Part shown: in pieces, positions 5,658 through 60,423 of the stretch | Numbering within the stretch: position 1 is the stretch's first letter | Layout: every line of letters starts with the position of its first letter | Assembly (NCBI GenBank): GCA_964016885.1 | Contig: OZ024744.1 | Location: forward strand, 64,294,001-64,358,000 | From: Eledone cirrhosa | Lineage: Eukaryota | Length of the DNA: 64,000 nucleotides | Reading direction: 5' to 3' | The notes under the pieces: model-generated | The model's input: the letters and a program-made list of their open reading frames with translations, nothing else | Told to the model about the DNA's origin: nothing | Databases searched by the model: none | Position numbers and translations under genes: made by a program

Positions 5658-5849
5658 ATCTAGGGAGTGTAACGCAGAGTTACTGTAGGTTCACCTGGGT
5701 GAACACTCGATGTTTAGGTTCACGTCTGTATCGAGGTGTAGAATTAGACAGAGTGTAGTATAATAAAATAAAACAAGGAGTCCTTTTTTTTCTTCATTTG
5801 AATTTGGCAAAGCTGGCCATTAATCACTCGTATACAGGAAACTGACTGG

Positions 5850-6145
5850 CCTGTCTGCTGATATGCAAATCTGGCTGATCAGTGGATCTGCTAATATACC
5901 GATCTGGCTGATCAGCCAGTCTGCTAATATGCAAATCTGGCTGATCAGTGGATCTGTTAATATGCAAATCTGACTGATCAGCCAGTCTAATATGCAGATC
6001 TGACTGATCAGCCAGTCTGCTAATATGCAGATCTGGCTGATTAGTGGATCTGCTAATATGCAGATCTGACTGATCAGTGGATCTGCTAATATGCAGATCT
6101 GACTAATCAGCCAGTCTGCTAATATGCAAAACAGGCCGATCAGTC
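5850..6145. repeat. ~33-bp tandem repeat, about 9 copies (TCTGCTAATATGCAGATCTGGCTGATCAGYSRR)
   Basis: Direct reading; CAGTGGA and CAGCCAG variants are interspersed. Confidence 0.9.
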
Positions 6146-6195
6146 ACTGTATATTTTAGAAAATATGAATTTTCACTAGCTCTGACAGTTGGCAG

Positions 6196-6261
6196 GTGAA
6201 CAGAGAACTGTACTGATGAAGGGTGATACCCAGAAACATTAGTGTCTGCAGTTCTGTTTAC
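6196..6261 (+). ncRNA. Type I hammerhead ribozyme motif (family 2)
   Basis: Stem I AGAACUGUA (6204-6212) / UGCAGUUCU (6247-6255); CUGAUGA 6213-6219; stem II GGGU-GAU-ACCC; GAAA 6233-6236; stem III ACA-UUAG-UGU; GUC cleavage triplet 6244-6246. Confidence 0.85.
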
Positions 6262-6386
6262 ATGCCAACACAAGAGCAAGAATGAAGTGTTCATTCTACT
6301 AACATGGCTTTTAAAAAGAGGCTTGTTTGCATGATTGCAAACGAATCGAATGTTATTATTACTATTTGAAAAAATCAGATTACATT

Positions 6387-6448
<62 letters not shown>

Positions 6449-6594
6449 AAATAAAACAAGGACACCTTGTTTTATTTTATTATACTACACTCTGTCTAGC
6501 TCTACACCTCGATACAGACTTGAACCTAAACATCGAGTGCTCACCCGGATGAACCGTAACTTTGTGGCACACTCCCTGGATATATATATATATA

Positions 6595-26967: not shown

Positions 26968-29900
26968 TTTACGTCCGCTTTTCCCTGCTTGCAAGGGTGG
27001 GACGGGTCTTATTCAGCACAGCATCTCTCCACTCGTCACGGTCCCTCGTCATCTCCACCGTGAGCTTTAATGATCTGAGGTCTGTTCTCACCACCTCCGC
27101 CCATGTTTTTCGTGGTCTACCTCTACCACGTCTTCCTTCAACTGGCATTTCCTGGCACTTCTTCACCCATCGGTCATCCTCCATGCGCATCACATGTCCA
27201 TACCACCTCAGTCTCCTCTCCCGTACACTACATTCTATCCCTCTCAGACACAGTTTCTCTCTCAACACATTTATGCTGGGTCGTTCACGCACATTTACAC
27301 TGCACATCCAACGGAGCATGCTTGCCTCATTTCTCTCCAGCCGTCGCATATCTTCTGCGGTAGCTGCCCATGTCTCACTACCATGCAGCATCGCGCTCCT
27401 CACACAGGCATCATACAACCGGCCTTTCGTACGCAGGGAGAAACCTTTCTTCGTCAACAGAGGAAGCAGCTCCCTAAACTTCTTCCAACCCGTCCTTATT
27501 CTAGATACTATGGCCTCGGAACACCCTCCTCCCATGCTAATCTGATCTCCTAGGTACCGGAAGCTATCCACCACTTCTATAGCGCCCTCTCGCATTTGAA
27601 AAATGTGTCTATCAGTGCGACTTCTACTGTCTAATTTCCCTGTACATCTACTGCATACATAGTTCTCCCTACCTGTTAGTTTGCCTGCTATCCCGCTACA
27701 TCTCTTGTGTACCCAGGACCTACATTGTGTGCATTTTATAGAATTTATGCCAGTTCCTTTTCTGCATATCGAACATGGCCATTTCCCTGACGGAATCAGG
27801 GTTTTGTCCTCTTTTCTACTCATCAACACTTTTGTCTTAGCTAGATTTACTCTCAGTCCTCTTGCTTCCAACTGCTGTTTCCATAGCCGGAATTTATTCT
27901 CTAGCTCCTCTACTGATTCTGCCATAAGAGCCAGATCGTCAGCATAGAGAAGTTCCCATGGACAACCAGTCTTAAACTCCTCTGTTATGGCTTGGAGGAC
28001 TATAATGAACAAGAGCGGGCTGAGGACCGAACCCTGATGTACTCCTACTTGTATCTGGAATTCCTCACTAAACTCCATTCCTACCCTGACTTTACTGAGA
28101 GTACCTCTGTACAAAGTTTGCACTGTCCTTACAAGCCATTCCTCAACACCCAGCTTCCTTAGGGACCACCAGATGACAGATCGGGGTACCCTATCAAAGG
28201 CCTTCTCTAGGTCAACAAAGGCTAAGTATAGTGGCTTATTCTTCTCTAAGAACCTCTCTTGCATTTGTCTCACCAAGAAGAGGGCATCTGTTGTACTCTT
28301 CCCAGGCACAAAACCAAACTGCATCTCATCTAGTTTGACCCTTTCTCTAATTAGTTGTGCTAAAATCCTTTCTGCCACTTTCATAACCTGATCTATCAGT
28401 TTTATACCCCTATAATTGCTCCTCTCCAAAGCATCCCCTTTACCTTTGTAGCAATTTATGAGAATACTGCTGCACCAGTCTTTGGGTATGACACCATCAT
28501 ATATAGCCTGATTGATTATGCGTGCAACCAGTTTAGTGCCTACGTCCCCTGATGCCTTCAGCATCTCAGCAACTATTCCCGATGGTCCGGCCGCCTTACC
28601 ATTTTTCATTTCCCTAATCGCCTCTTGGACCCTATATTCGTCAATCTCAATAGCTGGTCCCTCTGTCGGATCTACCAAGGGTAATTTCTCTCTCTCCCAT
28701 TCGTTCTCCACATTCATCAGTCTCTCATAATGACATTTCCAGGCCTCCTTTTTCTGGTCATTCGTGACACTAAGTACACCGGCATCATCCCGGACACATT
28801 TATCACCAACAACATCCTGATTTGCATTGACACACTGCCTTGCAATGTGGAACACCGCACGCCTCTGATCTTCCCGTCGCAGAACATTGGCAAACCTCCT
28901 ACTCTCTGCCTCCCTGCGTGCTAAGTACACCTGACGTCTAGCTTCTCTCTTAGTGGCTGTATATTCTTCCCTACTCCCACCCTTATTCCAAGCCTTCCAT
29001 GCTAGTCTTTTGTCTCTAATAGCCTTATCTACACTGCTGTTCCACCACCAGGTCACTCTCTGTCTAGTTGGAGCTCTGCTCCAGCCACAGGTTTCATCAG
29101 TAGCCTTCAGCAAGTTGTCACGTAAGAACTTCCAGTTATTATCTATGTCATACGTCTCTAAATCGTCTTCTTTTTCGTCATATACATCTTGAAGGGCTTT
29201 CCTAAATTTGAATTTTAGTGAAAGGTCTTTTAGCTTCCAGACCTTTCTTCTCCACACCTTCCTATATGTCTCATTCCATCTCTTGCTTACTGAGATATCA
29301 CTAACAACTAACCTATGCTGTGGGGTACATTCTTCCCCAGGGTATGCCTTGGTATTAGACACTATCTGCCTGTCCCGCTGCCTAACTAGCAGGAAGTCAA
29401 TCTGGCTTATGTGCTCACCAGATTTGTAGGTTATTAGGTGATTGGCAGGTTTCTGGAAGTTTGTGTTGCAAATAGTCAATGTACTTGCATCACAAAATTC
29501 AAGAAGTCTCACTCCTTCTTCATTTCTTGAACCGTAACCGTGCCCACCATGTACCCCAGTGTAACCATCCTGGAGCTGTCCAACATGACCATTGAAGTCT
29601 CCTGCTAGCATAACGATGTCTCCGTCCTCTGTCATTGTGGTTGTTTGCAAAAGTTGCTCATAAAAGCAGTCTTTCTCATCTTTGCCTAGGCCTGCTTGGG
29701 GAGCATAGACCGAGATGATTGTCAGTAGTCTCCTACCTACAACTAATCTAAGCTTAATTATTCGATTACTAACTCGAACTACCTCTATTGTCTTATTGAT
29801 CCATTTCTCAGCCAGGAAAATGCCTACTCCCCCTAACCCATCATCCTTACCTACCCAGAATAGCTTATAGCTAAGACGCTTGCCTACGACTAGTCTCGCA

Positions 29901-30227
29901 GAGGCACCCCTCCATCTCACCTCTTGCACGCAGCACACATCCACCTGCCTTCTCTCCAGCATCTCCGCTATTTCAGCAGACCTACCTCTGAGAGTGCCAA
30001 CATTAAGTGTTGCAACTCTGAGATGCGACGTCTTCATATTTTCTATGCTGTTTTGTTGCTGTGCTGATAAGCTTTTTGGCGTTGATACACTGGTTGGATG
30101 CCCTTCCTAACACCAGCGCCACTTTACAGCATGGACTGGGTGCTTTTATTTGTGCCACCAGCACTAGAGAGGATGTCTTACTAGACTCAAGGGCCCTCTC
30201 TACCCCTCCATTTTACAGCATCGTCAT

Positions 30228-35539: not shown

Positions 35540-36150
35540 TATGTGACATACACTCATATCAGACATATACTCATATGAAACATATACTAATATGAGATAT
35601 ATACTCATATGAGACATATACTAATATAAAACATATCCTCATATGAGACATATACTCATACAAAACATATCCTCATATAAGATATATCCTCATATGAGAC
35701 ATATACATATAAGATATAACCTCATATGAGACATATACATATATAAGACATATCCTCATATGAGACATACATATGAGACATATACATATAAGATATAACC
35801 TCATATGAGACATATACTCATATAAGGCATATCCTCATATGAGACATACATATGAGACATATACATATAAGATATAACCTCATATGAGACATATACATAT
35901 ATAAGGCATATCCTCATATGAGACATACATATGAGACATATACATATAAGATATAACCTCATATGAGACATATACATATATAAGACATATCCTCATATGA
36001 GACATATACATATGAGACATATACATATAAGATATATCCTCATATGAGACATATACTCATATAAGTTATATACTAATACAGCATATGTCTCATATAAGAC
36101 ATATCCTCATATAAGTCATATACTCATATGAGCATATGTCTCATATAAGA
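35540..36150. repeat. Degenerate 14-18-bp minisatellite (CATATGAGACATATACT)
   Basis: Direct reading. Confidence 0.9.
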
Positions 36151-36663
36151 CACATGCTGTATTGCAATGACTTCATGGAGATTGCTAAACTCCACAGTAA
36201 AACTTGTACAAAATCTGATCTGGCAACTTTCTAATTTCTAGCCCTTTTCAACTGTTTTCATATTTTTGTTTTTACTCCTCCAAATTGAGAGATCACAGCT
36301 CCGATACTATGGACATGTGGTTAGAATGTCTGAGGAAAGAATCACTGGATAGATTTTATGGGAAAAACCAACTGGCAGGAGACCCAGGTTGTAGCCCCTG
36401 AGCAAGATGGTTGGATAACATCCATGAGCTTGGTGGTTTTTCCCATAAAATCTATCCAGTGATTCTTTCCTCAGACATTCTAACCACATGTCCATAGTAT
36501 CGGAGCTGTGATCTCTCAATTTGGAGGAGTAAAAACAAAAATATGAAAACAGTTGAAAAGGGCTAGAAATTAGAAAGTTGCCAGATCAGATTTTGTACAA
36601 GTTTTACTGTGGAGTTTAGCAATCTCCATGAAGTCATTGCAATACAGCATGTGTCTTATATGA
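36141..36663. repeat. 230-bp inverted duplication with a 63-bp spacer
   Basis: 36141-36370 is the reverse complement of 36434-36663; no mismatch noticed by eye. Confidence 0.92.
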
Positions 36664-39536: not shown

Positions 39537-42500
39537 TTGACCCTTTAGCATTTAAACCGTCCGTATATGGCCAGAATTCTTACACCTTTTCTGTTCAAAC
39601 CCGCTGTAACCGACTGTTCATACTTATGTTAAGGTTTTGTTCTCAAAATAAATAATATCAAAATCTCGTAGATTTGATATTATGTGAGATAATTATGTGA
39701 GGTAAAGCCTTTACCATGAAAATATAATAGTATATATAGAGTAATGTGAATGTTATGTGAGGTAAAGCCTTTACCATGAAAATATAATAGTATATATATA
39801 TAGTAATGTGAATGTTATGTGAGGTAAAGCCTTTACCATGAAAATATTATAGTATATATAGAGTAATGTGAATGTTATGTGAGGTAAAGCTTTTACCATG
39901 AAAATATAATAGTATATATAGAGTAATGTGAATGTTATGTGAGGTAAAGTCTTTACCATGAAAATATAATAGTATATATAGAGTAATGTGAATGTTATGT
40001 GAGGTAAAGCCTTTACCATGAAAATATAATAGTATATATAGAGTAATGTGAATGTTATGTGAGGTAAAGTCTTTACCATGAAAATATAATAGTATATATA
40101 GAGTAATGTGAATGTTATGTGAGGTAAAGCTTTTACCATGAAAATATAATAGTATATATAGAGTAATGTAAATGTTATGTGAGGTAAAGCCTTTACCATG
40201 AAAATATAATAGTATATATAGAGTAATGTGAATGTTATGTGAGGTAAAGTCTTTACCATGAAAATATAATAGTATATATAGAGTAATGTGAATGTTATGT
40301 GAGGTAAAGCCTTTACCATGAAAATATAATAGTATATATAGAGTAATGTGAATGTTATGTGAGGTAAAGCCTTTACCATGAAAATATAATAGTATATATA
40401 GAGTAATGTGAATGTTATGTGAGGTAAAGTCTTTACCATGAAAATATAATAGTATATATAGAGTAATGTGAATGTTATGTGAGGTAAAGCCTTTACCATG
40501 AAAATATAATAGTATATATAGAGTAATGTGAATGTTATGTGAGGTAAAGTCTTTACCATGAAAATATAATAGTATATATAGAGTAATGTGAATGTTATGT
40601 GAGGTAAAGCTTTTACCATGAAAATATAATAGTATATATAGAGTAATGTAAATGTTATGTGAGGTAAAGCCTTTACCATGAAAATATAATAGTATATATA
40701 GAGTAATGTGAATGTTATGTGAGGTAAAGTCTTTACCATGAAAATATAATAGTATATATAGAGTAATGTGAATGTTATGTGAGGTAAAGCCTTTACCATG
40801 AAAATATAATAGTATATATAGAGTAATGTGAATGTTATGTGAGGTAAAGTCTTTACCATGAAAATATAATAGTATATATAGAGTAATGTGAATGTTATGT
40901 GAGGTAAAGCTTTTACCATGAAAATATAATAGTATATATAGAGTAATGTAAATGTTATGTGAGGTAAAGCCTTTACCATGAAAATATAATAGTATATATA
41001 GAGTAATGTGAATGTTATGTGAGGTAAAGCCTTTACCATGAAAATATAATAGTATATATAGAGTAATGTGAATGTTATGTGAGGTAAAGCCTTTACCATG
41101 AAAATATAATAGTATATATATAGTAATGTGAATGTTATATGAGGTAAAGTCTTTACCATGAAAATATAATAGTATATATAGAGTAATGTGAATGTTATGT
41201 GAGGTAAAGCCTTTACCATGAAAATATAATAGTATATATAGAGTAATGTGAATGTTATGTGAGGTAAAGCCTTTACCATGAAAACATAATAGTATATATA
41301 TAGTAATGTGAATGTTATGTGAGGTAAAGCCTTTACCATGAAAACATAATAGTATATATATAGTAATGTGAATGTTATGTGAGGTAAAGCCTTTACCATG
41401 AAAACATAATAGTATATATATAGTAATGTGAATGTTATGTGAGGTAAAGTCTTTACCATGAAAATATAATAGTATATATATAGTAATGTGAATGTTATGT
41501 GAGGTAAAGCCTTTACCATGAAAATATAATAGTATATATAGAGTAATGTGAATGTTATGTGAGGTAAAGCCTTTACCATGAAAATATAATAGTATATATA
41601 GAGTAATGTGAATGTTATGTGAGGTAAAGCCTTTACCATGAAAATATAATAGTATATATAGAGTAATGTAAATGTTATGTGAGGTAAAGCCTTTACCATG
41701 AAAATATAATAGTATATATAGAGTAATGTGAATGTTATGTGAGGTAAAGTCTTTACCATGAAAATATAATAGTATATATATAGTAATGTGAATGTTATGT
41801 GAGGTAAAGCCTTTACCATGAAAATATAATAGTATATATAGAGTAATGTGAATGTTATGTGAGGTAAAGCCTTTACCATGAAAATATAATAGTATATATA
41901 GAGTAATGTGAATGTTATGTGAGGTAAAGTCTTTACCATGAAAATATAATAGTATATATATAGTAATGTGAATGTTATGTGAGGTAAAGTCTTTACCATG
42001 AAAATATAATAGTATATATATAGTAATGTGAATGTTATGTGAGGTAAAGCCTTTACCATGAAAATATAATAGTATATATATAGTAATGTGAATGTTATGT
42101 GAGGTAAAGCCTTTACCATGAAAATATAATAGTATATATAGAGTAATGTGAATGTTATGTGAGGTAAAGCCTTTACCATGAAAATATAATAGTATATATA
42201 TAGTAATGTGAATGTTATATGAGGTAAAGTCTTTACCATGAAAATATAATAGTATATATAGAGTAATGTGAATGTTATGTGAGGTAAAGCCTTTACCATG
42301 AAAATATAATAGTATATATAGAGTAATGTGAATGTTATGTGAGGTAAAGCCTTTACCATGAAAACATAATAGTATATATATAGTAATGTGAATGTTATGT
42401 GAGGTAAAGCCTTTACCATGAAAACATAATAGTATATATATAGTAATGTGAATGTTATGTGAGGTAAAGTCTTTACCATGAAAATATAATAGTATATATA

Positions 42501-43545
42501 TAGTAATGTGAATGTTATGTGAGGTAAAGCCTTTACCATGAAAATATAATAGTATATATAGAGTAATGTGAATGTTATGTGAGGTAAAGCCTTTACCATG
42601 AAAATATAATAGTATATATAGAGTAATGTGAATGTTATGTGAGGTAAAGCCTTTACCATGAAAATATAATAGTATATATAGAGTAATGTAAATGTTATGT
42701 GAGGTAAAGCCTTTACCATGAAAATATAATAGTATATATAGAGTAATGTGAATGTTATGTGAGGTAAAGTCTTTACCATGAAAATATAATAGTATATATA
42801 TAGTAATGTGAATGTTATGTGAGGTAAAGCCTTTACCATGAAAATATAATAGTATATATAGAGTAATGTGAATGTTATGTGAGGTAAAGCCTTTACCATG
42901 AAAATATAATAGTATATATAGAGTAATGTGAATGTTATGTGAGGTAAAGTCTTTACCATGAAAATATAATAGTATATATATAGTAATGTGAATGTTATGT
43001 GAGGTAAAGTCTTTACCATGAAAATATAATAGTATATATATAGTAATGTGAATGTTATGTGAGGTAAAGCCTTTACCATGAAAATATAATAGTATATATA
43101 GAGTAATGTGAATGTTATGTGAGGTAAAGCCTTTACCATGAAAATATAATAGTATATATATAGTAATGTGAATGTTATGTGAGGTAAAGCCTTTACCATG
43201 AAAATATAATAGTATATATAGAGTAATGTAAATGTTATGTGAGGTAAAGCCTTTACCATGAAAATATAATAGTATATATAGAGTAATGTGAATGTTATGT
43301 GAGGTAAAGTCTTTACCATGAAAATATAATAGTATATATATAGTAATGTGAATGTTATGTGAGGTAAAGCCTTTACCATGAAAATATAATAGTATATATA
43401 GAGTAATGTGAATGTTATGTGAGGTAAAGCCTTTACCATGAAAATATAATAGTATATATAGAGTAATGTGAATGTTATGTGAGGTAAAGTCTTTACCATG
43501 AAAATATACTAGTATATATAGAGTAATGTAAAGGTAAAGGGTTAA
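39537..43545. mobile_element. piggyBac-type MITE with a large internal tandem expansion
   Basis: Left TTGA|CCCTTTAGCATTTA plus the normal MITE body; right TAAAGGG|TTAA; satellite in between. Confidence 0.88.
39695..43530. repeat. 60-bp satellite, about 64 near-identical copies
   Basis: Unit TATGTGAGGTAAAGCCTTTACCATGAAAATATAATAGTATATATAGAGTAATGTGAATGT; the period matches the 60-nt line width. Confidence 0.98.
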
Positions 43546-43567
43546 AAGTGATGAGGCAAGCAATAAT

Positions 43568-43755
43568 TGTTTCTACTTTTGGCACAAGGCCAGAAATTAC
43601 CCAGTGCATTACTGGTACTTTATTTTATCGACCCTGTAAGGATGAAAGGCAAAGTTAACCTCGGCGGGGTTTGAACTCAGATCATAAAGGGACGTAACTC
43701 TATGCTTCAAAGCATAGTGTCCGACTCTCTACCGATACTGCCAATCCCCCGCCCT
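43568..43755 (-). mobile_element. SINE family N, young copy
   Basis: Perfect 16-bp TSD TGAGGCAAGCAATAAT at 43552-43567 and 43756-43771. Confidence 0.9.
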
Positions 43756-46511: not shown

Positions 46512-47035
46512 TATCAAGTTAACAAAGAAAATAAAAAGAACAAAGTCAAGTTACTTTATAACTTTGTTTTTATTTTGTTGTTTTTATTCGTATTGTTAAT
46601 TTAATACCTAATATCTGACTCTGTATCTAAAGAATTAATTCAGCGAAGCAGAACTTCTCTATGGATTTTACAAGATTACATTGAGTCCTATCTACGGTAC
46701 GGACCCTACCACCAGAGGTACACCAGACTGAAAAAAGACAAAAATAAAAAATAAAAATAAATAAAAATATATATATATATATAAATGTAAGTATGCATGT
46801 ATACGTACATACATATATGTATACAGACGTACAGTAGCATGCACACATATATATATATATATATACATATATATATACATATGCATACAGGTACACATAC
46901 ATATATGCACGTATCAGTTTAGCGGCGCTTATTATAACGTCGCTTTGTTCGTTTGTAAACAAAATGAACAGCCTGAATTTATGCCATACGGTGTTAAGGC
47001 AACCACGTCACCTTTTTGTTCAACACTGACACAGG

Positions 47036-47080
47036 AACGATGTACTAGTTTCAAGCTTGTTAGCTATCATCAGCACCGTT
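47036..47080 (-). ncRNA. Minimal type I hammerhead ribozyme (family 1)
   Basis: Reverse complement of 47191-47235. Confidence 0.82.
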
Positions 47081-47190
47081 TACCCATCTGCCGATTTAAC
47101 TCACTCAATATGCAAATTAGGCTGCTCAGCCGTTAATTTTCATAAGGAAAGTATATACTTTCGAACGTTCAACTATCTGGCAGATGGGTA

Positions 47191-47235
47191 AACGGTGCTG
47201 ATGATAGCTAACAAGCTTGAAACTAGTACATCGTT
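47191..47235 (+). ncRNA. Minimal type I hammerhead ribozyme (family 1)
   Basis: AACGGUG-CUGAUGA-U-AGCU-AACA-AGCU-U-GAAA-CUAG-UA-CAUCGUU. Stem I AACGGUG/CAUCGUU; palindromic stem III ACUAGU; GUA triplet 47226-47228. Confidence 0.85.
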
Positions 47236-47538
47236 CCTGTGTCAGTGTTGAACAAAAAGGTGACGTGGTTGCCTTAACACCGTATGGCATAAATTCAGGC
47301 TGTTCATTTTGTTTACAAACGAACAAAGCGACGTTATAATAAGCGCCGCTAAACTGATACGTGCATATATGTAAGTGTACCTGTATGCATATGTATATAT
47401 ATATATGTATATATATATATATGTGCATGCTACTGTACGTCTGTATACATATATGTATGTACGTATACATGCATACTTACATTTAAGTAAGTGCCATACT
47501 ACGAGTGAGAATTGAAAATTTGTTTTCATTTTGTTTCA

Positions 47539-47580
<42 letters not shown>

Positions 47581-47625
47581 TTGTCTCTGTGTGTGTGTGT
47601 GTATATAAATATATATGTGGCACAT

Positions 47626-48016
47626 GGAGGCACATGGGTTAGTGGTTAGAGCATTGGCCTTGCAATCGAAAGGTTGTGAGTTCAATTCTCAGACCGGGTG
47701 ATGTGTTGTTTCCTTGAGCAAGACACTTTATTTCACATTGCTCCAGTTTACTCAGCTGTAGAAATGAGATGATAAGGACTGAGGTCCATATCATTCCACT
47801 GCAAAGTGGTCGTGGAGGTGCCATGGCAAAAAAGCACCCAGCCCACACTGCAAAGTGGTTGTGGAGGTGCCACGGCAAAAAAGCACCCAGCACTCACTGT
47901 AAATGAGGTTGGTGTTAGGAAGGGCATCCAGCTGTAGAAATCAAGCCAGAATCAGTTCCCGTTCCACCCTTGCAAGCAGGAAAAAGTGAACGTAAAATGA
48001 AATGATGATGATGATG
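47626..48016 (+). mobile_element. CORE-type SINE family 1 with RTE-derived body and tail
   Basis: tRNA head (TAGTGG, GAGTTCAATTC); CORE-like CCTTGAGCAAGACACTT...CTCAGCTGTAGAAATG; two 49-bp repeats; AGGAAGGGCATCC module; RTE-A 3' end with (TGA)n. Confidence 0.88.
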
Positions 48017-49179
48017 TGTGCGTGTGTTTGTCTGTGTGGGTGTGTATAATATATATATAAATCTACATACATATATACATAGATTTATATATATATATTA
48101 TACACACACACATCATTTATACATTTGTATATATATACATGCATTTATATTTAAGTGTGTAAGGATGTTGACTTGATTTATGTTATTTTTTGGTAAGGAG
48201 AGAATTTTGGCTCCAGATTTTATTACCTAGGAAGATTAAATACCACAGCTCTGGCTGAAAGCTGACCAGTATGTATGTATGTACGTATGCATGTGTGTTT
48301 CATCACCATTGCTTCTTTTTCTTGTCGTTTCTGTTGTTCTTGTAACTGTTGTAAAAGTTGCGTTGTCCTTATTTTCATTTTCTTTGATTTCTTTCGTTTT
48401 TCTTTTATCTCCCTAGGGAATTCGTTGACAAGCTTCTTTTATTTATTTTCTTCGTTTTCTTCATTCAGATGCATTCACACTGGCTGTCTAAGAGACTACA
48501 AATATGACTTATAAAACTTACCTAAGTAAATAGCCTAGCACCCCCAAAGCTTCAAACGCCCCTCTAACGCCCCCTTGCTCTAAAACGCCCCCCCCCCCCC
48601 AATGGAACTCTGAAACGCCCCCTCCCCCTTTTTTTTGAGAACCTTTGATGTAGAGCATGTGCTTGTGTGAGTTGTGCTATTTTAATGGGTCGTTATTGTA
48701 CAGGGCAGGGGTTGACAAACTTTTATGTTGTCTTTATTGGAAATATTTTTATATCTTGTGGGCTATGGGGAATAAAAAAGGAAACCATGATCATTTGAGT
48801 CTATGGAAATAGCTTGTTTTTTTGTTTTCTTTTGTTTTTTTAATCCCTCTTATGTCTTTACTGATAATCGTTTATCGTAGAATAAAATAAATATTTTTCA
48901 CTGGTGATAGAAAGAATAACCAAAAAAGCAAGTGTACCTGAAAACCATAACATTGTTTAATTATGTTTATAAAAACAATTCTTTTGCTAAGCCACAGCAG
49001 GCTCAGAAATTCAACACAGAATAATGCATATGAACAGATTACAACAGTGAAAATATATACCTACATAATACTAGATTTATAACAATAAGGAAACAATATA
49101 ATAGAATAAAATGTACAAATGACAACAATAATTGGTGTTGTTAAAGGTTGTTCAAGACAAATGTTTTAGTTTTAATATA

Positions 49180-49500
49180 TAATATCATGATATCACACTG
49201 TATAATATCACAATATCTATCACAATATGTAATATCCTAATATCACAATATATAATATCACAATATATATCACAATATATAATAACACAATATATAATAT
49301 CATAATATCACAATATATATCACAATATATAATAACACAATATATAGTATCATAATATCACAATATATATCACAATATATAATAACACAATATATAATAT
49401 TGCAATATATAATAATATAATATTACAATAAATATTATCACAATATATAATATCACAATATTACAATATATAATATCACAATATCACAATATATAATATC
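49180..49500. repeat. AT-rich minisatellite (ATATCACAATAT-type)
   Basis: Direct reading. Confidence 0.85.
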
Positions 49501-49765
49501 TAGTCTAAGTATAAAGTCTGTCTTAAGTCAGAAGGCTTGTTAGGCCAGTGCTTATCCTGGTTTCATGGCGTGAAGCGACTGAGAGTACAAGACTCCCCTG
49601 TGGACAGGAAGCCAGTTCATCATGGGGTTAAACCCCCAGTTTGCTGGTACTCATTTGGAGCAATGTGAAATGAAGTGCTTTGCTCAATAACACAACACGC
49701 AACCCAGGAATCGAACCCATTATGATCGTAAATCCAGCATTCTTACCACTGAACCACATGCCTCC
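49501..49765 (-). mobile_element. CORE-type SINE family 2
   Basis: Homologous to 17240-17737; B box GGTTCGATTCC; flanked by ATATATAATATC. Confidence 0.8.
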
Positions 49766-50066
49766 CATATATATAATATCAGTTTCATATCAGTTTAGAT
49801 AAATTTGTGGCGTCACGCATGAGTGGTAGGACAGCTACTGACAAAGGTTTAGCAACAAAATCCTGTATCACAAAAGTTTTTACTATTATCACTAGATATT
49901 TTTTCAATACTAAATTTTAACCCCTTCGTTAATCATATTTGTAATGAAACAATGATGACCAGCTTCAAAGTTGATTAAAATACTATAATGGTGCTTAATT
50001 TTACAATGAGACTAACTGCATACAGATATGCAGGGCTGGAGTAACCATTAATCCTTTAACATTTAA

Positions 50067-50281
50067 CCTGTTGACTGCCACATATATTTTACACAGCTAC
50101 AGTCGCAGTGCCGGTAAAATGACTATTTTGATTGACAAGTGTCACATCAATAAACTAGTAACCCATCTAGCTTTGATGTTATGAACTGTTGGAAACGAGT
50201 TCATAACTTTGAAGTTATGAACTGTTGGAAAGGAGTTCAAACATGTTGGGATGAGTTATCTCATCTGCGACATTGAAGAGG
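50067..50281. mobile_element. Second TTAA-flanked element inserted in a MITE end
   Basis: TTAA at 50063-50066 and 50282-50285; degenerate TIR CCTGTTGACTGCCAC / CCTCTTCAATGTCGC; the flanks rejoin into the MITE terminus. Confidence 0.55.
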
Positions 50282-51015
50282 TTAAACTGGCCATATCCAT
50301 TTAAAAACAAAACTTAAATTTAAAATATCATTGAAAAAAAAATTAAAATAAATAAAATCTTTTAATAGAAATAGTTTTGTTTAAAATATGTAGATAGGAT
50401 AGGGTGGGTTTCTTTTTTTTTCACAAGTTTTGTTTAAAAAAAAAATAAAAGAAGGTGATAGTAAAATGTTGTCTTTCCTAAGAGTTGCAATAAAGAGATG
50501 TAACTTGCCTAAGGTGATTAAATGTGAATCTTCTGAAGTAAGTGAACAATTTTGTAACATCAGCATTATGTATTCACTTGGAAATTTCTAAATAAATAAA
50601 TAAAACAAAAAAAAAACTTATGAAACTGGAACTACTTGCCAATAGCTACGTACTATTGGGTATGGGGAGGTCATATGATAAAGTAATTCCTTTGATGAAA
50701 GGAAAAAGGAAAAGAAATATGAAATTCAAAAAATCCTTCTGAATGTCACTTTGCTGGCAGCAGTTCAACCAAAAACCTGTTTATTTTATTTATTTATTAT
50801 TTTCTCTTTCCTACATCCGTTCTGGCTCAAACATTGTTTAATACAATCACTTTAACTACTTGAGACTTTCAAAATGTTAGTTAGATTTTTTTTTCCCCAA
50901 GGTTATCCATTATATTTATCTGGAAATATCACAGTTACGAATATGAAGACTTTCAAAAACTTACACACACACATATATATATATATTCTATGTATATATA
51001 TATATACATACATAT

Positions 51016-51346
51016 ATCATTTTTCATCATTTCATTTTACGTCCGCTTTTCCCGTGGGACGGGAACTGATTCTGGCTTGATTTCTACAGCTGGATGCCTT
51101 TCCTAACACCAACCTCATTTACAGTGAGTGCTGGGTGCTTTTTTGCCGTGGCACCTCCACGACCACTTTGCAGTGGAATGATAGGGACCCCAGTCCGTAT
51201 CATCTCATTTCTACAGCTGAGTAAACTGGAGCAATGTGAAATAAAGTGTCTTGCTCAAGGAAACAACACATCACCCGGTCTGAGAATTGAACTCACAACC
51301 TTCCAATTGCCAGTCCATTACTCTAACCACTAAGCCATGTGCCTCC
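51016..51346 (-). mobile_element. CORE-type SINE family 1
   Basis: Close reverse-complement match to 47626-48016, with one repeat unit fewer and a tail deletion. Confidence 0.88.
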
Positions 51347-51677
51347 ATATATATATGTATATTCTATGAACATATATACATATATATATATAAAACTATG
51401 AATAAATAAATAAATAGTAGGGATAAAGGACGTTAAATAAGGATGATTATATATATATATATATATATATAAGTATGTATACGTACATACATATATGTAT
51501 ACAGACATACAGTAGTATGTATATATATATATACATACATGCACACATATATATATGTACGTATGGATTCACCGAACATTTATTATAATGCTCGGTGTGT
51601 TTGTAAACAAACATCCCGAATTAAGCCGTACAGTGTCTAGCAACCATCGTTGCTCATTGTTCAACACTGACAAAGGA

Positions 51678-51720
51678 ACGCTGTACTAGTTTCAAGCTTA
51701 TTAGTTATCGTCAGCAACGT
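51678..51720 (-). ncRNA. Minimal type I hammerhead ribozyme (one stem II mismatch)
   Basis: ACGUUG-CUGACGA-UAACUAAUAAGCUU-GAAA-CUAGUA-CAGCGU. Confidence 0.75.
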
Positions 51721-52174
51721 ATACCTTCCTGCCAGATTGTTGAACGTCTGAAAGTATATACTTTCCTTATGCATATTAATGGCTGAGCAGCCTAATTTGC
51801 ATATCGAGTGGGTTAATCGGCCGGGGTACCGTAAACGATAAACGGAAAAAATGAAACGAAATTTCATTTCTCACTCTTAGTACGGTTGTTACTTATATAA
51901 GTATGTATACGTACATACATATATGTATACAGACGTACAGTAGTATGTATATATACATACATGTACACATATATATATATGTACGTATGGATTCACCAAA
52001 CATTTATTATAATGCTCGGTGTGAAAAATGAAATTTTGTTTCATTTTTTCCGTTTATCGTTTACGGTACCCCGGCCGATTAACTCACTCGATATGCAAAT
52101 TAGGCTGCTCAGCCATTAATATGCATAAGGAAAGTATATACTTTCAGACGTTCAACCATCTGGCAGGAAGGTAT

Positions 52175-52217
52175 ACGTTGCTGACGATAGCTAATAAGCT
52201 TGAAACTAGTACAGCGT
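52175..52217 (+). ncRNA. Minimal type I hammerhead ribozyme (family 1)
   Basis: ACGUUG-CUGACGA-U-AGCU-AAUA-AGCU-U-GAAA-CUAG-UA-CAGCGU; stem I covaries relative to locus 1. Confidence 0.85.
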
Positions 52218-53100
52218 TCCTTTGTCAGTGTTGAACAAATGAGCAACGATGGTTGCTGGACACTGTACGGCTTAATTCGGGATGTTTGTTTACAAACACA
52301 CCGAGCATTATAATAAATGTTCAGAAACAAGCTGTGCATCATTACATCTAATATTCCTATCAATATGAATATTCCTGTCAAAAGCTGGCTATACAAGTTT
52401 TCTATGTAAGAATGCAGAAATGCCACAAGTTGAATATAACCAATTCCTTGCAGCTTAGACATGTGGGACATGTGGCAGAACATTTTTGAATAAGTCAGGA
52501 ATTACAAGGCAATCTAAAATAAATGGGGAGGTGGGAGGTGAAGAGATAACATGTTCATCACATTAGTATTGATAAACTAAGAAAATTAACAAAGATGGGA
52601 CAAAACAACAAATGAAAAACAATTTTTTAAGCGGAAACCTTAAAAAATTATTTAAAAAAAAAATACAAATGAAGGTCACAGAACTCCGCGGTTATCAGCC
52701 ATTGAGATGGACTTTGGCAGTTTCAATGCCTACCAACGGTACTGCTGGTCGACCTGAGATCATAGCATCTGAGTCAAGCCAAACAGTGGAGTAAGAGATA
52801 AAAGACAAAACATTAATCTATAGCAATTAAGCTACAAGTACACATAGAATTTTATGTGGTTCAGGGAAAAGTGTGGTGCTCTTATATATATGACATCATC
52901 ATTATCATCACTATCAGAAAAACCACCCCTCGGGTGGTTTTTCTGCTAGCATGTGTATATACATGTAGATACGATACATCAAATAAAATCGTAATTGACA
53001 ATATATAATACATAGAAATTGAACGAAGACTGAATTACACTGTCTTATTTAATCAGTAACGTAATCTATGATACATTCAAAAAGACGATATTATATATAA

Positions 53101-59307: not shown

Positions 59308-59789
59308 GATGGCTGCAACTCAATTTCGCGTAATGGCATTGCTTGATACTTAAGCATGAGCATCACAGACGTGGCTTTTTAATCCTGCTAGGGACTTGCC
59401 TATGGCCAGCAATACCATATATAGCAATAAATATCACATTTCAAGCGATGCCTGTGCCTGAAACTTTTTTAAGTGAGGAAAAGCTTTGCATGGGGCCAAT
59501 CCCACTCTCTGAACTTTAAATGCAAAGAACTGGTCTACATCATTGGATGAAGTCACAGGTTTTATATCAGAGTGACCTTCTCCTAGAGAGATGTCTTAAT
59601 GAAGAATGATGAATAGGGGGTCTCTCGCTCCCCCCCCCCCACAAAAAATCATACATACGTGCGTACATACATACGTACATACATACGTATGTACATACAT
59701 GCTTTCATACATACATATGTATGTACATAGACACATACATACACATTACATACACACACATACATCCATGCACACACACACACATACAT

Positions 59790-60423
59790 ACCATATACAT
59801 AATATGAAAGAGTACAAGTGGAATGTTCCAGTAGAAGCCCCAATAAAATGCAGGCATAACAAACCAGATATAATGATATGGGACAGGGAAAAGAAAGCAT
59901 GCACAGTAGTGGAAGTTAGCTGCCCAGCAGATGCCAATATAATATCAAAGATTAGCGAAAAGGAGAATATTTATGCAGAACTGATGAGAAATCTGCAGAT
60001 ACTCCACCCTGATTATACCTTCAGATTTATACCTGTGATTATTGGGGCACTGGGGTATGTTAGTAACTGCCTCAATACAAATCTTGAGAAGCTAGGCTTC
60101 ACAGGAACAGAAAGAACACAACTAGTTAGGAAATTACTAGTACAATCCATTAATGGAACAGTAAAAATATGTAAAACATTCCCAAAATTCTGCATCTAAT
60201 AACTGCATATACACATGTACAGATTCAAAGCATATACACATGCACACATACAACTCAAAACATACACATCCACACATACAATAACATCCATATCTACACA
60301 TGCATACATACATATCTACCTAGTTGATGTTGTGTAAATTCCAATGAGAGAGTCTTGTGTCTATGTTAGAAACCGACTCTCTCTCTATTGGTAAAACTTT
60401 GTGAAATTATAAAACCAGAAGAA
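59790..60423 (+). mobile_element. R4/Dong-like non-LTR 3' fragment (restriction-like endonuclease + 3' UTR)
   Basis: HNKPDIMIWD...VVEVSCP...EKENIY...IPVIIGALG, open to the stop at 60199; 3' UTR hairpin; flanked by (CATA)n on both sides. Confidence 0.8.

Follow-up and report, generated by a model that had tools for sequence, protein, structure and literature searches.

What kind of element leaves two head-to-head copies of the same short, hammerhead-bearing repeat within a few kilobases of each other? The question is raised by a 64,000-nucleotide stretch of the genome of Eledone cirrhosa (assembly GCA_964016885.1, contig OZ024744.1, positions 64,294,001 to 64,358,000 of the forward strand), which we call the window and whose own numbering is used below. 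An initial annotation of this DNA had described a non-coding repeat family with hammerhead ribozymes at two loci, here termed A and B. We propose that A and B arose as independent palindromic insertions and that the inserted repeat, which is abundant, 428 bp long and hammerhead-bearing, is likely a non-autonomous retrozyme served in trans by the reverse transcriptase (RT) and endonuclease of a Penelope-like element (PLE), a reading to which we assign a probability of roughly 0.6. The RNA that was copied was probably a re-ligated circle.

The 428-bp unit and its palindromic loci

The length of the unit is given by locus B, where the sequence at 51466-51599 recurs at 51894-52023; its GC content is 36%. 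Both loci consist of head-to-head pairs of 5′-truncated copies that have 3 nt in common at the centre. A complete unit is present only at locus B, whose left arm amounts to 1.3 units, the extent of head-to-tail tandem observed. The two arms differ at 2 of 307 aligned bases in locus A and at 6 of 301 in locus B, and the tandem overlap of locus B shows a comparable divergence (3/128), values that fit a single template per locus. Thus, the initial annotation was right about the length of the unit and about the inverted pair at each locus, while the tandem junction that it assigned to both holds for B, where 130 nt of a preceding unit are present, and not for A, which has only a 53-nt tail.

Between loci, identity is 142/159 from the octamer-like motif to the hammerhead and 72/111 in the 3′ hairpins. 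Since the diagnostic bases of the A and B subfamilies are both frequent in reads, the two loci represent separate insertions. A joint duplication of the loci together with the short interspersed elements (SINEs) beside them was considered and rejected, as the SINEs are alike at 309 of 324 positions, more than the units, and no similarity extends past the ends of the SINEs. The four arms reach 49, 138, 190, and 339 nt upstream of the predicted cut site. Each locus has one hammerhead per strand, and therefore neither can release a monomer or a circle; both loci are aged, short, dead-end copies.

The tail at locus A begins with the splice-donor-like GTAAGT, which reads GTAAC at locus B, so that the donor is not kept. 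At locus B the tail sequence is continuous with the octamer block, as it is in further diverged copies (records 7-8 of X1, 13 and 15 of X4; X numbers denote sequencing runs). The only candidate for a coding remnant, a 69-amino-acid frame at 52025-52231, was rejected because it has no Pfam match; its one phmmer match among 1.84 billion proteins is low-complexity and repetitive (E 1.5e-4). Since the tail runs into the next unit and no trace of protein is found, we take the unit to be a closed non-coding repeat.

The family is abundant. A 341-bp part of the unit is covered by 9,853 of 16.5 million contigs in run X1 and by 102 contigs in X6; in X21, 64,568 raw records out of 12.5 million fall on it. 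These figures are not copy numbers: contig depths were summed, and the restriction-site-associated DNA (RAD) library, with its share of reads, is biased by AATT and, by our reading, GCATGC sites. They point to thousands of copies of the unit, or more, in the genome. A run filed under a second organism label, X4, has 20 contigs, most of them at least 90% alike, which together reach 28 of 29 bins, and reflects either a relative or contamination. At least half of the sequence words occur in three of the 20 matching runs, all from one organism and one sample, possibly the source of this DNA; of the 17 with smaller shares, X4 and X6 are the two that were used.

The hammerhead motifs and their conservation

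Type I hammerhead cores lie at 47073 (-), 47198 (+), 51714 (-), and 52181 (+), with cleavage predicted 3′ of A17 in each (Table 1). Every motif comprises a 6-bp helix I, the CUGANGA core, a 4-bp helix II atop a U.U mismatch, GAAA, a 2-bp helix III inside the palindrome ACUAGU, and A17. The U immediately 3′ of helix I and the final A of loop 2 are conserved at both loci, and these two bases may form the usual tertiary pair. Beyond an internal loop of 3 nt on one side and 1 nt on the other, helix I runs into three more helices.

A pattern derived from the motifs themselves matches four times in the window and in none of 100 shuffles. A family-blind type I descriptor also has four matches in the window, against one in total over 300 shuffles; they are three of the four known motifs and a further motif, so far unreported, whose core is at 6213. 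The descriptor misses 51714 (-) because that copy has its helix II disrupted by a private change at position 51705, where 98% of X21 raw reads and 99.5% of X1 contig depth carry the paired base. Accordingly, three of the four hammerhead copies are intact.

Of the 87 positions in the hammerhead domain, 10 distinguish A from B, none of them a conserved core position. Five of the differences are unpaired or free, N7 and loop 2 among them, and five are paired; all 29 base pairs are preserved, two of them with changes on both sides, a pattern that random placement of the differences gives with a simulated P of 4e-5 to 4e-4. Among the variants listed for 51560-51900 in four runs (40 of 68), N7, a free position, is the only one in the core, and the covarying pair of stem I is seen as U-G, G-U, and A-U. 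These observations speak for selection on the hammerhead. Two downstream hairpins also fold at both loci, with very different stems, in a part where the alignment is ambiguous.

These results agree with the initial annotation on the presence and places of the four motifs, on the conservation of the core, and on covariation in stem I, where a G.U/U.G exchange is found. Its statement that the stem II change falls in the loop holds between loci and overlooks the break within the minus-strand copy of locus B. It also called the motifs minimal, and here we differ. The minimal form defined in PMC4209133 is without helix III and loop 3 and has a helix II of 7-8 bp and a helix I of 4-5 bp; the helices predicted here have 6 (I), 4 (II), and 2 bp (III). 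PLE variants whose helix III is small and palindromic are also listed in that paper. The core CUGANGA, GAAA, and UH are all present, as are helices I, II, and III, with helix I open. With these predicted helices, the motif belongs by the definitions of PMC4209133 to the canonical type I hammerheads of metazoans and differs from the minimal form of Penelope elements.

The Rfam search suggested in the annotation returned no match in the window at the gathering score; below threshold, model HH9 reaches 18.5 bits (E 0.87) for both locus-A motifs only, among 129 weak matches. Rfam microRNA matches were rejected as TA hairpins. Within a lone molecule, helix III would need a 2-nt loop, which ViennaRNA disallows, and an intermolecular duplex is predicted at -6.8 kcal/mol; the dimer model of hammerheads is reviewed in PMC6765202.

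Table 1. Positions in the window of the parts of loci A and B, the hammerheads, the candidate promoter blocks, and the distant relative C.
Feature	Position	Strand	Remarks
Locus A left (TA)8 target	46768..46783	.	
Locus A left arm	46782..47092	-	5′-truncated; begins at GGCAG 49 nt upstream of cut site; ends at first fixed 3′ end, no tail
Locus A right arm	47090..47485	+	Overlaps left arm by 3 nt (47090-47092) at inversion centre
Locus A tail, right arm only	47486..47538	+	53 nt; homologous to next unit's first bases (alignment to 51830-51905(-)); then (AT)n
Locus A right (AT)n target	47539..47566	.	
Locus B left (TA)12 target	51448..51471	.	
Locus B complete 428-bp unit	51466..51893	-	Ends at first fixed 3′ end
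Locus B preceding unit, last 130 nt	51894..52023	-	Head-to-tail; 3 substitutions in 128 against outer copy
Locus B right arm	52021..52323	+	3-nt central overlap (52021-52023); stops 112 nt past cut site, without TA tract or tail
Hammerhead A-	47037..47079	-	Predicted cut 3′ of 47043
Hammerhead A+	47192..47234	+	Predicted cut after 47228; helix I prolonged via bulges across 47167-47253
Hammerhead B-	51678..51720	-	Predicted cut site 51684; private change at 51705 breaks helix II
Hammerhead B+	52175..52217	+	Predicted cut after 52211
Candidate promoter block A+	47110..47162	+	Octamer-like ATGCAAAT (47110), TATA-containing palindrome (47147-47162); putative function
Octamer-like motif and palindrome of B+	52093..52145	+	Same block on - strand starts at 51802
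Distant relative C	5830..6390	+	Octamer block, palindrome, GGCAG, hammerhead 6207-6252 (GUC site, 6246); ends at (TA)n tract

Insertion ends, template and alternative origins

The loci carry the footprint of a Penelope insertion: a (TA)n target, a partial tandem, an inverted 5′-truncated arm, and a one-sided tail of 53-56 nt. The same layout has been described for PLEs with an endonuclease in PMC8557442 and PMC3846280, and PMC11167929 reports that a Penelope protein cuts AT-rich DNA and extends both strands, with starts at a pair of internal RNA sites between which the tail lies. In Penelope elements this tail is the start of the open reading frame (ORF) (PMC11167929, PMC3846280). A second end, at 51838 and 56 nt beyond the first, is where 51 X1 and 4 X6 contigs exit into (TA)n; this end is thus not confined to locus A. 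Strand inversions account for 12 of the 15 joints listed (44 in all), two of them also in X1 contigs, and joints at the likeness setting used may arise from repeats. The positions 51858-51860 might be taken for a third 3′ end (some 23,800 RAD reads with mixed loose ends), a candidate that was rejected as a likely artefact of restriction and ligation, since the piles of read ends in that run (51619, 51794/51797, 51863) all fall on the three AATT sites of this part of the unit.

Because each of the four arms spans the cut site, the template must have been either circular or a multimer left uncut, and a cleaved linear monomer is excluded. Between the two we favour the circle over the uncut linear multimer by about three to two. 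We propose the following route. An internal promoter would drive transcription of tandem source copies elsewhere; two hammerheads, pairing through the ACUAGU palindrome, are predicted to excise a monomer that would be ligated into a circle. An enzyme of the Penelope type would then cut both strands of a (TA)n tract and copy the RNA from both DNA ends, with starts at two fixed sites 53-56 nt apart. What is seen at the loci is two 5′-truncated copies joined head to head over 3 nt, with a tail on one arm only.

The putative promoter comprises the octamer-like motif, a conserved block, and the TATA-containing palindrome (Table 1). At locus A, the octamer-like motif lies 69 nt and the palindrome 32 nt before GGCAG, and across the elements the respective distances to this GGCAG, with which the outer helix opens, are 67-69 nt and exactly 32 nt. 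All six ATATGCAAAT matches in the window fall within the A, B, and C elements, against 0.54 expected. Such constant spacing suggests that the unit contains a promoter acting at the DNA level, and the octamer-palindrome block is, from its sequence and placement, likely to be that promoter. The minus-strand arm of locus A starts exactly at GGCAG, a single case to which we give no weight. Newt satellite 2 reportedly has an octamer in its promoter. According to PMC2220036, which cites the work of Coats, Zhang and Epstein (1994), this satellite is a hammerhead repeat with an internal promoter of small nuclear RNA type; the unit described here has a conserved octamer-like motif upstream of its hammerhead.

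The relative C, found through the fourth descriptor match, aligns collinearly with A (154/277 columns) and B (158/275), with scores above all of 1,500 control segments; its part upstream of the hammerhead alone beats all of 3,000 controls, narrowly so for A. In C, an octamer-bearing block of about 30 nt has been amplified in tandem about ten times (5850-6140). C and its (TA)n tract stand between inverted repeats at 5661-5798 and 6445-6580 (90% alike across 111 nt). These repeats are either the 3′ part of C itself, inserted as a palindrome, or a fold-back element of separate origin into which C was inserted. It is tempting to go further and propose a self-promoted cephalopod retrozyme lineage whose insertions would record a debated step of Penelope transposition, in which one circle is copied from both ends of a (TA)n break with two starts about 55 nt apart and a 3-nt microhomology join, and in which the octamer-palindrome block, kept in a relative about 57% alike, acts as a promoter that makes each lap of more than one unit a new source. 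This fuller scheme is speculative, and on balance we would not expect all of it to hold.

Several observations weigh against a circular, Penelope-served retrozyme. No Penelope RT or GIY-YIG domain was found by Pfam among 80 window frames scanned (76 non-low-complexity frames beyond 30100 and 4 others, from 262 of at least 65 amino acids), as the initial annotation had already remarked of the RT; the RTs found in the window belong to long interspersed elements (LINEs) with an AP endonuclease. The right arm of locus B, without tail or TA tract, calls for a later deletion or an aborted end. The tail exceeds the published 30-40 nt, and because 24 of 526 loose ends were listed, an occasional copy linked to a Penelope ORF may have escaped notice. 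PMC11167929 found hammerhead cleavage dispensable for insertion, and in the 2026 work of Li, Clavereau and Pollet (10.64898/2026.07.22.740005) one of nine predicted dimers was cleaved in vitro. As for the motif, the usual G10.1-C11.1 pair at the base of helix II is replaced by U.U; since the active axolotl HHR_Amex2 has the same mismatch, membership among hammerheads is not excluded. The simulated test of random placement is flattered by the distal pairs having been read from these two sequences themselves. By marginal, unlinked counts, the two sides of the stem I pair agree in frequency in X21 (65% and 65%) and X6 (86% and 85%) and disagree in X1 (52% and 24%) and X4 (15% and 2%). Finally, the unit folded as a circle has a z of -7.7 with helix I of the hammerhead still formed, but the antisense reaches -6.0 and two of six flank controls -4.3 and -4.0, for which reason folding energy is given little weight.

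Could the loci instead be the end stubs of an autonomous PLE, that is, pseudo-long terminal repeat (pLTR), inverted pLTR, and tail, with the 1.3-unit arm a partial tandem from a single insertion and no dedicated retrozyme RNA at all? Locus A matches the layout of pLTR, inverted pLTR, and tail in PMC3846280 exactly, Penelope copies are mostly 5′-truncated, the window is without an array of two full units, and single contigs leave the 5′ part of the unit for 255 nt of other sequence (X4 at 51871, X6 at 51825). The tail, however, enters the octamer block of the next unit in several diverged copies, unlike the start of a Penelope ORF; neither Pfam nor phmmer finds a trace of protein; and an ORF for RT and GIY-YIG between pLTRs, the mark of an autonomous PLE with endonuclease, is absent at the loci. 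The hammerhead is of the canonical retrozyme type, and the loose ends listed at 51895 and 51899 (X1 contigs, 59 and 43) lead on into the TA-rich end of the unit itself. We therefore consider this origin unlikely.

A Penelope-dependent, non-autonomous element might also arise by linear read-through of tandem copies, the inverted arm being made by fold-back self-priming of cDNA, with a weak or idle hammerhead and no circle. An uncut multimer accounts equally for arms that cross the cut site, the 3-nt overlaps at both centres suit the fold-back model of PMC3846280, and uncut RNA was the main in vitro substrate in PMC11167929. An idle hammerhead sits poorly with a core and helices conserved across subfamilies and in relative C, and the longer arm is tailed at A and tail-less at B, for which two independently primed ends are simpler, although this comparison has two loci only; we hold this route to be quite unlikely. 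Very improbable, in turn, is an origin purely at the level of DNA, in which recombination at (TA)n tracts spread a fold-back or satellite repeat and the hammerhead is a fossil. It is general knowledge that long palindromes and TA-rich ends are recombinogenic, but fixed 3′ and variable 5′ ends, a one-sided tail, and compensatory changes are the marks of reverse transcription of a structured RNA. The Penelope-served retrozyme thus remains our preferred reading. The annotation's own proposal, a self-cleaving, possibly circular retroelement mobilised by a Penelope-like RT, survives in its non-coding, non-autonomous character and in the anatomy of insertion, with the correction that these two loci are themselves dead ends for circles.

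Neighbouring features and comparison with known systems

The window is repeat-rich animal DNA with AP-endonuclease/RT LINEs, SINEs, microsatellites, and a 60-bp satellite. An open LINE frame of 1045 amino acids at 26969-30106 (-) matches Pfam RVT_1, Exo_endo_phos, and PHD, has several decayed relatives within 1-30 kb, and is presumably RTE-like. Two tRNA-headed SINEs, 47624-48008 (+) and 51024-51347 (-), are inverted and 3 kb apart; each adjoins one hammerhead locus, and their 3′ end matches that of the window LINEs. The satellite, at 39770-43570, has about 64 copies of 96-99% identity and a strong strand skew. Next to a short-period tandem repeat lies an inverted repeat with perfectly matching arms of 230 nt (36141-36370 and 36434-36663), which are separated by 63 nt; this inverted repeat contains CTGAGGA and GAAA yet fails the type I descriptor. 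The frame at 59603-60199 (+) has no Pfam match, and its second half resembles what we take to be the restriction-like endonuclease end of a non-LTR element. Beyond the window, two metagenome matches to the pattern were dismissed as chance, lying within a 779-amino-acid ORF in DNA of 21% GC unlike the unit. The two contigs (L001, L002, 1-6034) are AT-rich and carry long N-rich ORFs and a C-terminus like that of topoisomerase II, and we assume them to be giant-virus-like.

How does the family relate to what has been described? Judged by its unit, motif, and abundance, it can be placed among the animal non-LTR retrozymes, with insertion ends of the Penelope type, and an element of this kind has already been described (PMC7229834; 10.64898/2026.07.22.740005). 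The unit falls within the 150-450 bp, GC below 50%, and non-coding nature of metazoan non-LTR retrozymes (Cervera and de la Pena 2020, PMC7229834), such as those of mussel (350-390 bp) and axolotl (Rtz353), and X1 contigs and X21 reads show it to be multi-copy as they are. It also shares with them a single canonical type I hammerhead per unit, a head-to-tail organisation, here partial, and a strongly self-paired predicted circle. Among described variants, axolotl HHR_Amex2 comes nearest: it likewise has U.U below helix II and 2 bp in helix III, and it cleaves better as a dimer (PMC7229834). Unlike the retrozymes of that paper, the unit is found here in 1.3 tandem copies and has 2 nt in the loop of helix III, against 4 in theirs; it also occurs as head-to-head palindromes with a tail in (TA)n, and the word "inverted" is absent from the main text of PMC7229834. 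In the open-access literature, to which our search was confined, we found no paper on a cephalopod retrozyme.

Li, Clavereau and Pollet (10.64898/2026.07.22.740005) propose that retrozymes are non-autonomous PLE derivatives dependent on Penelope and that monomers and partial copies are dead offspring, in both of which our reading is like theirs. By its main text, that work samples vertebrates, three insects, and a coral, and no molluscs. Neither A nor B has the two consecutive units with complete motifs by which it defines an active copy. As in insertions of PLEs with endonuclease (PMC3846280, PMC8557442, PMC11167929), there is a partial tandem, an inverted 5′-truncated copy, a one-sided tail, and an AT-rich or microsatellite target, and the hammerhead lies upstream of the RT starts (for pLTR hammerheads, PMC4209133). 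The unit differs from those elements in being without an ORF, in a 53-56-nt tail that enters the next unit, and in a canonical rather than minimal hammerhead. The copying of retrozymes into DNA has so far been proposed from co-occurrence and pLTR homology (10.64898/2026.07.22.740005), whereas here a closed non-coding unit with the tail-and-inversion footprint of Penelope links the two through their insertion ends. The same unit offers a small substrate for an in vitro Penelope assay, in which a circle can be set against a linear template and one end against two.

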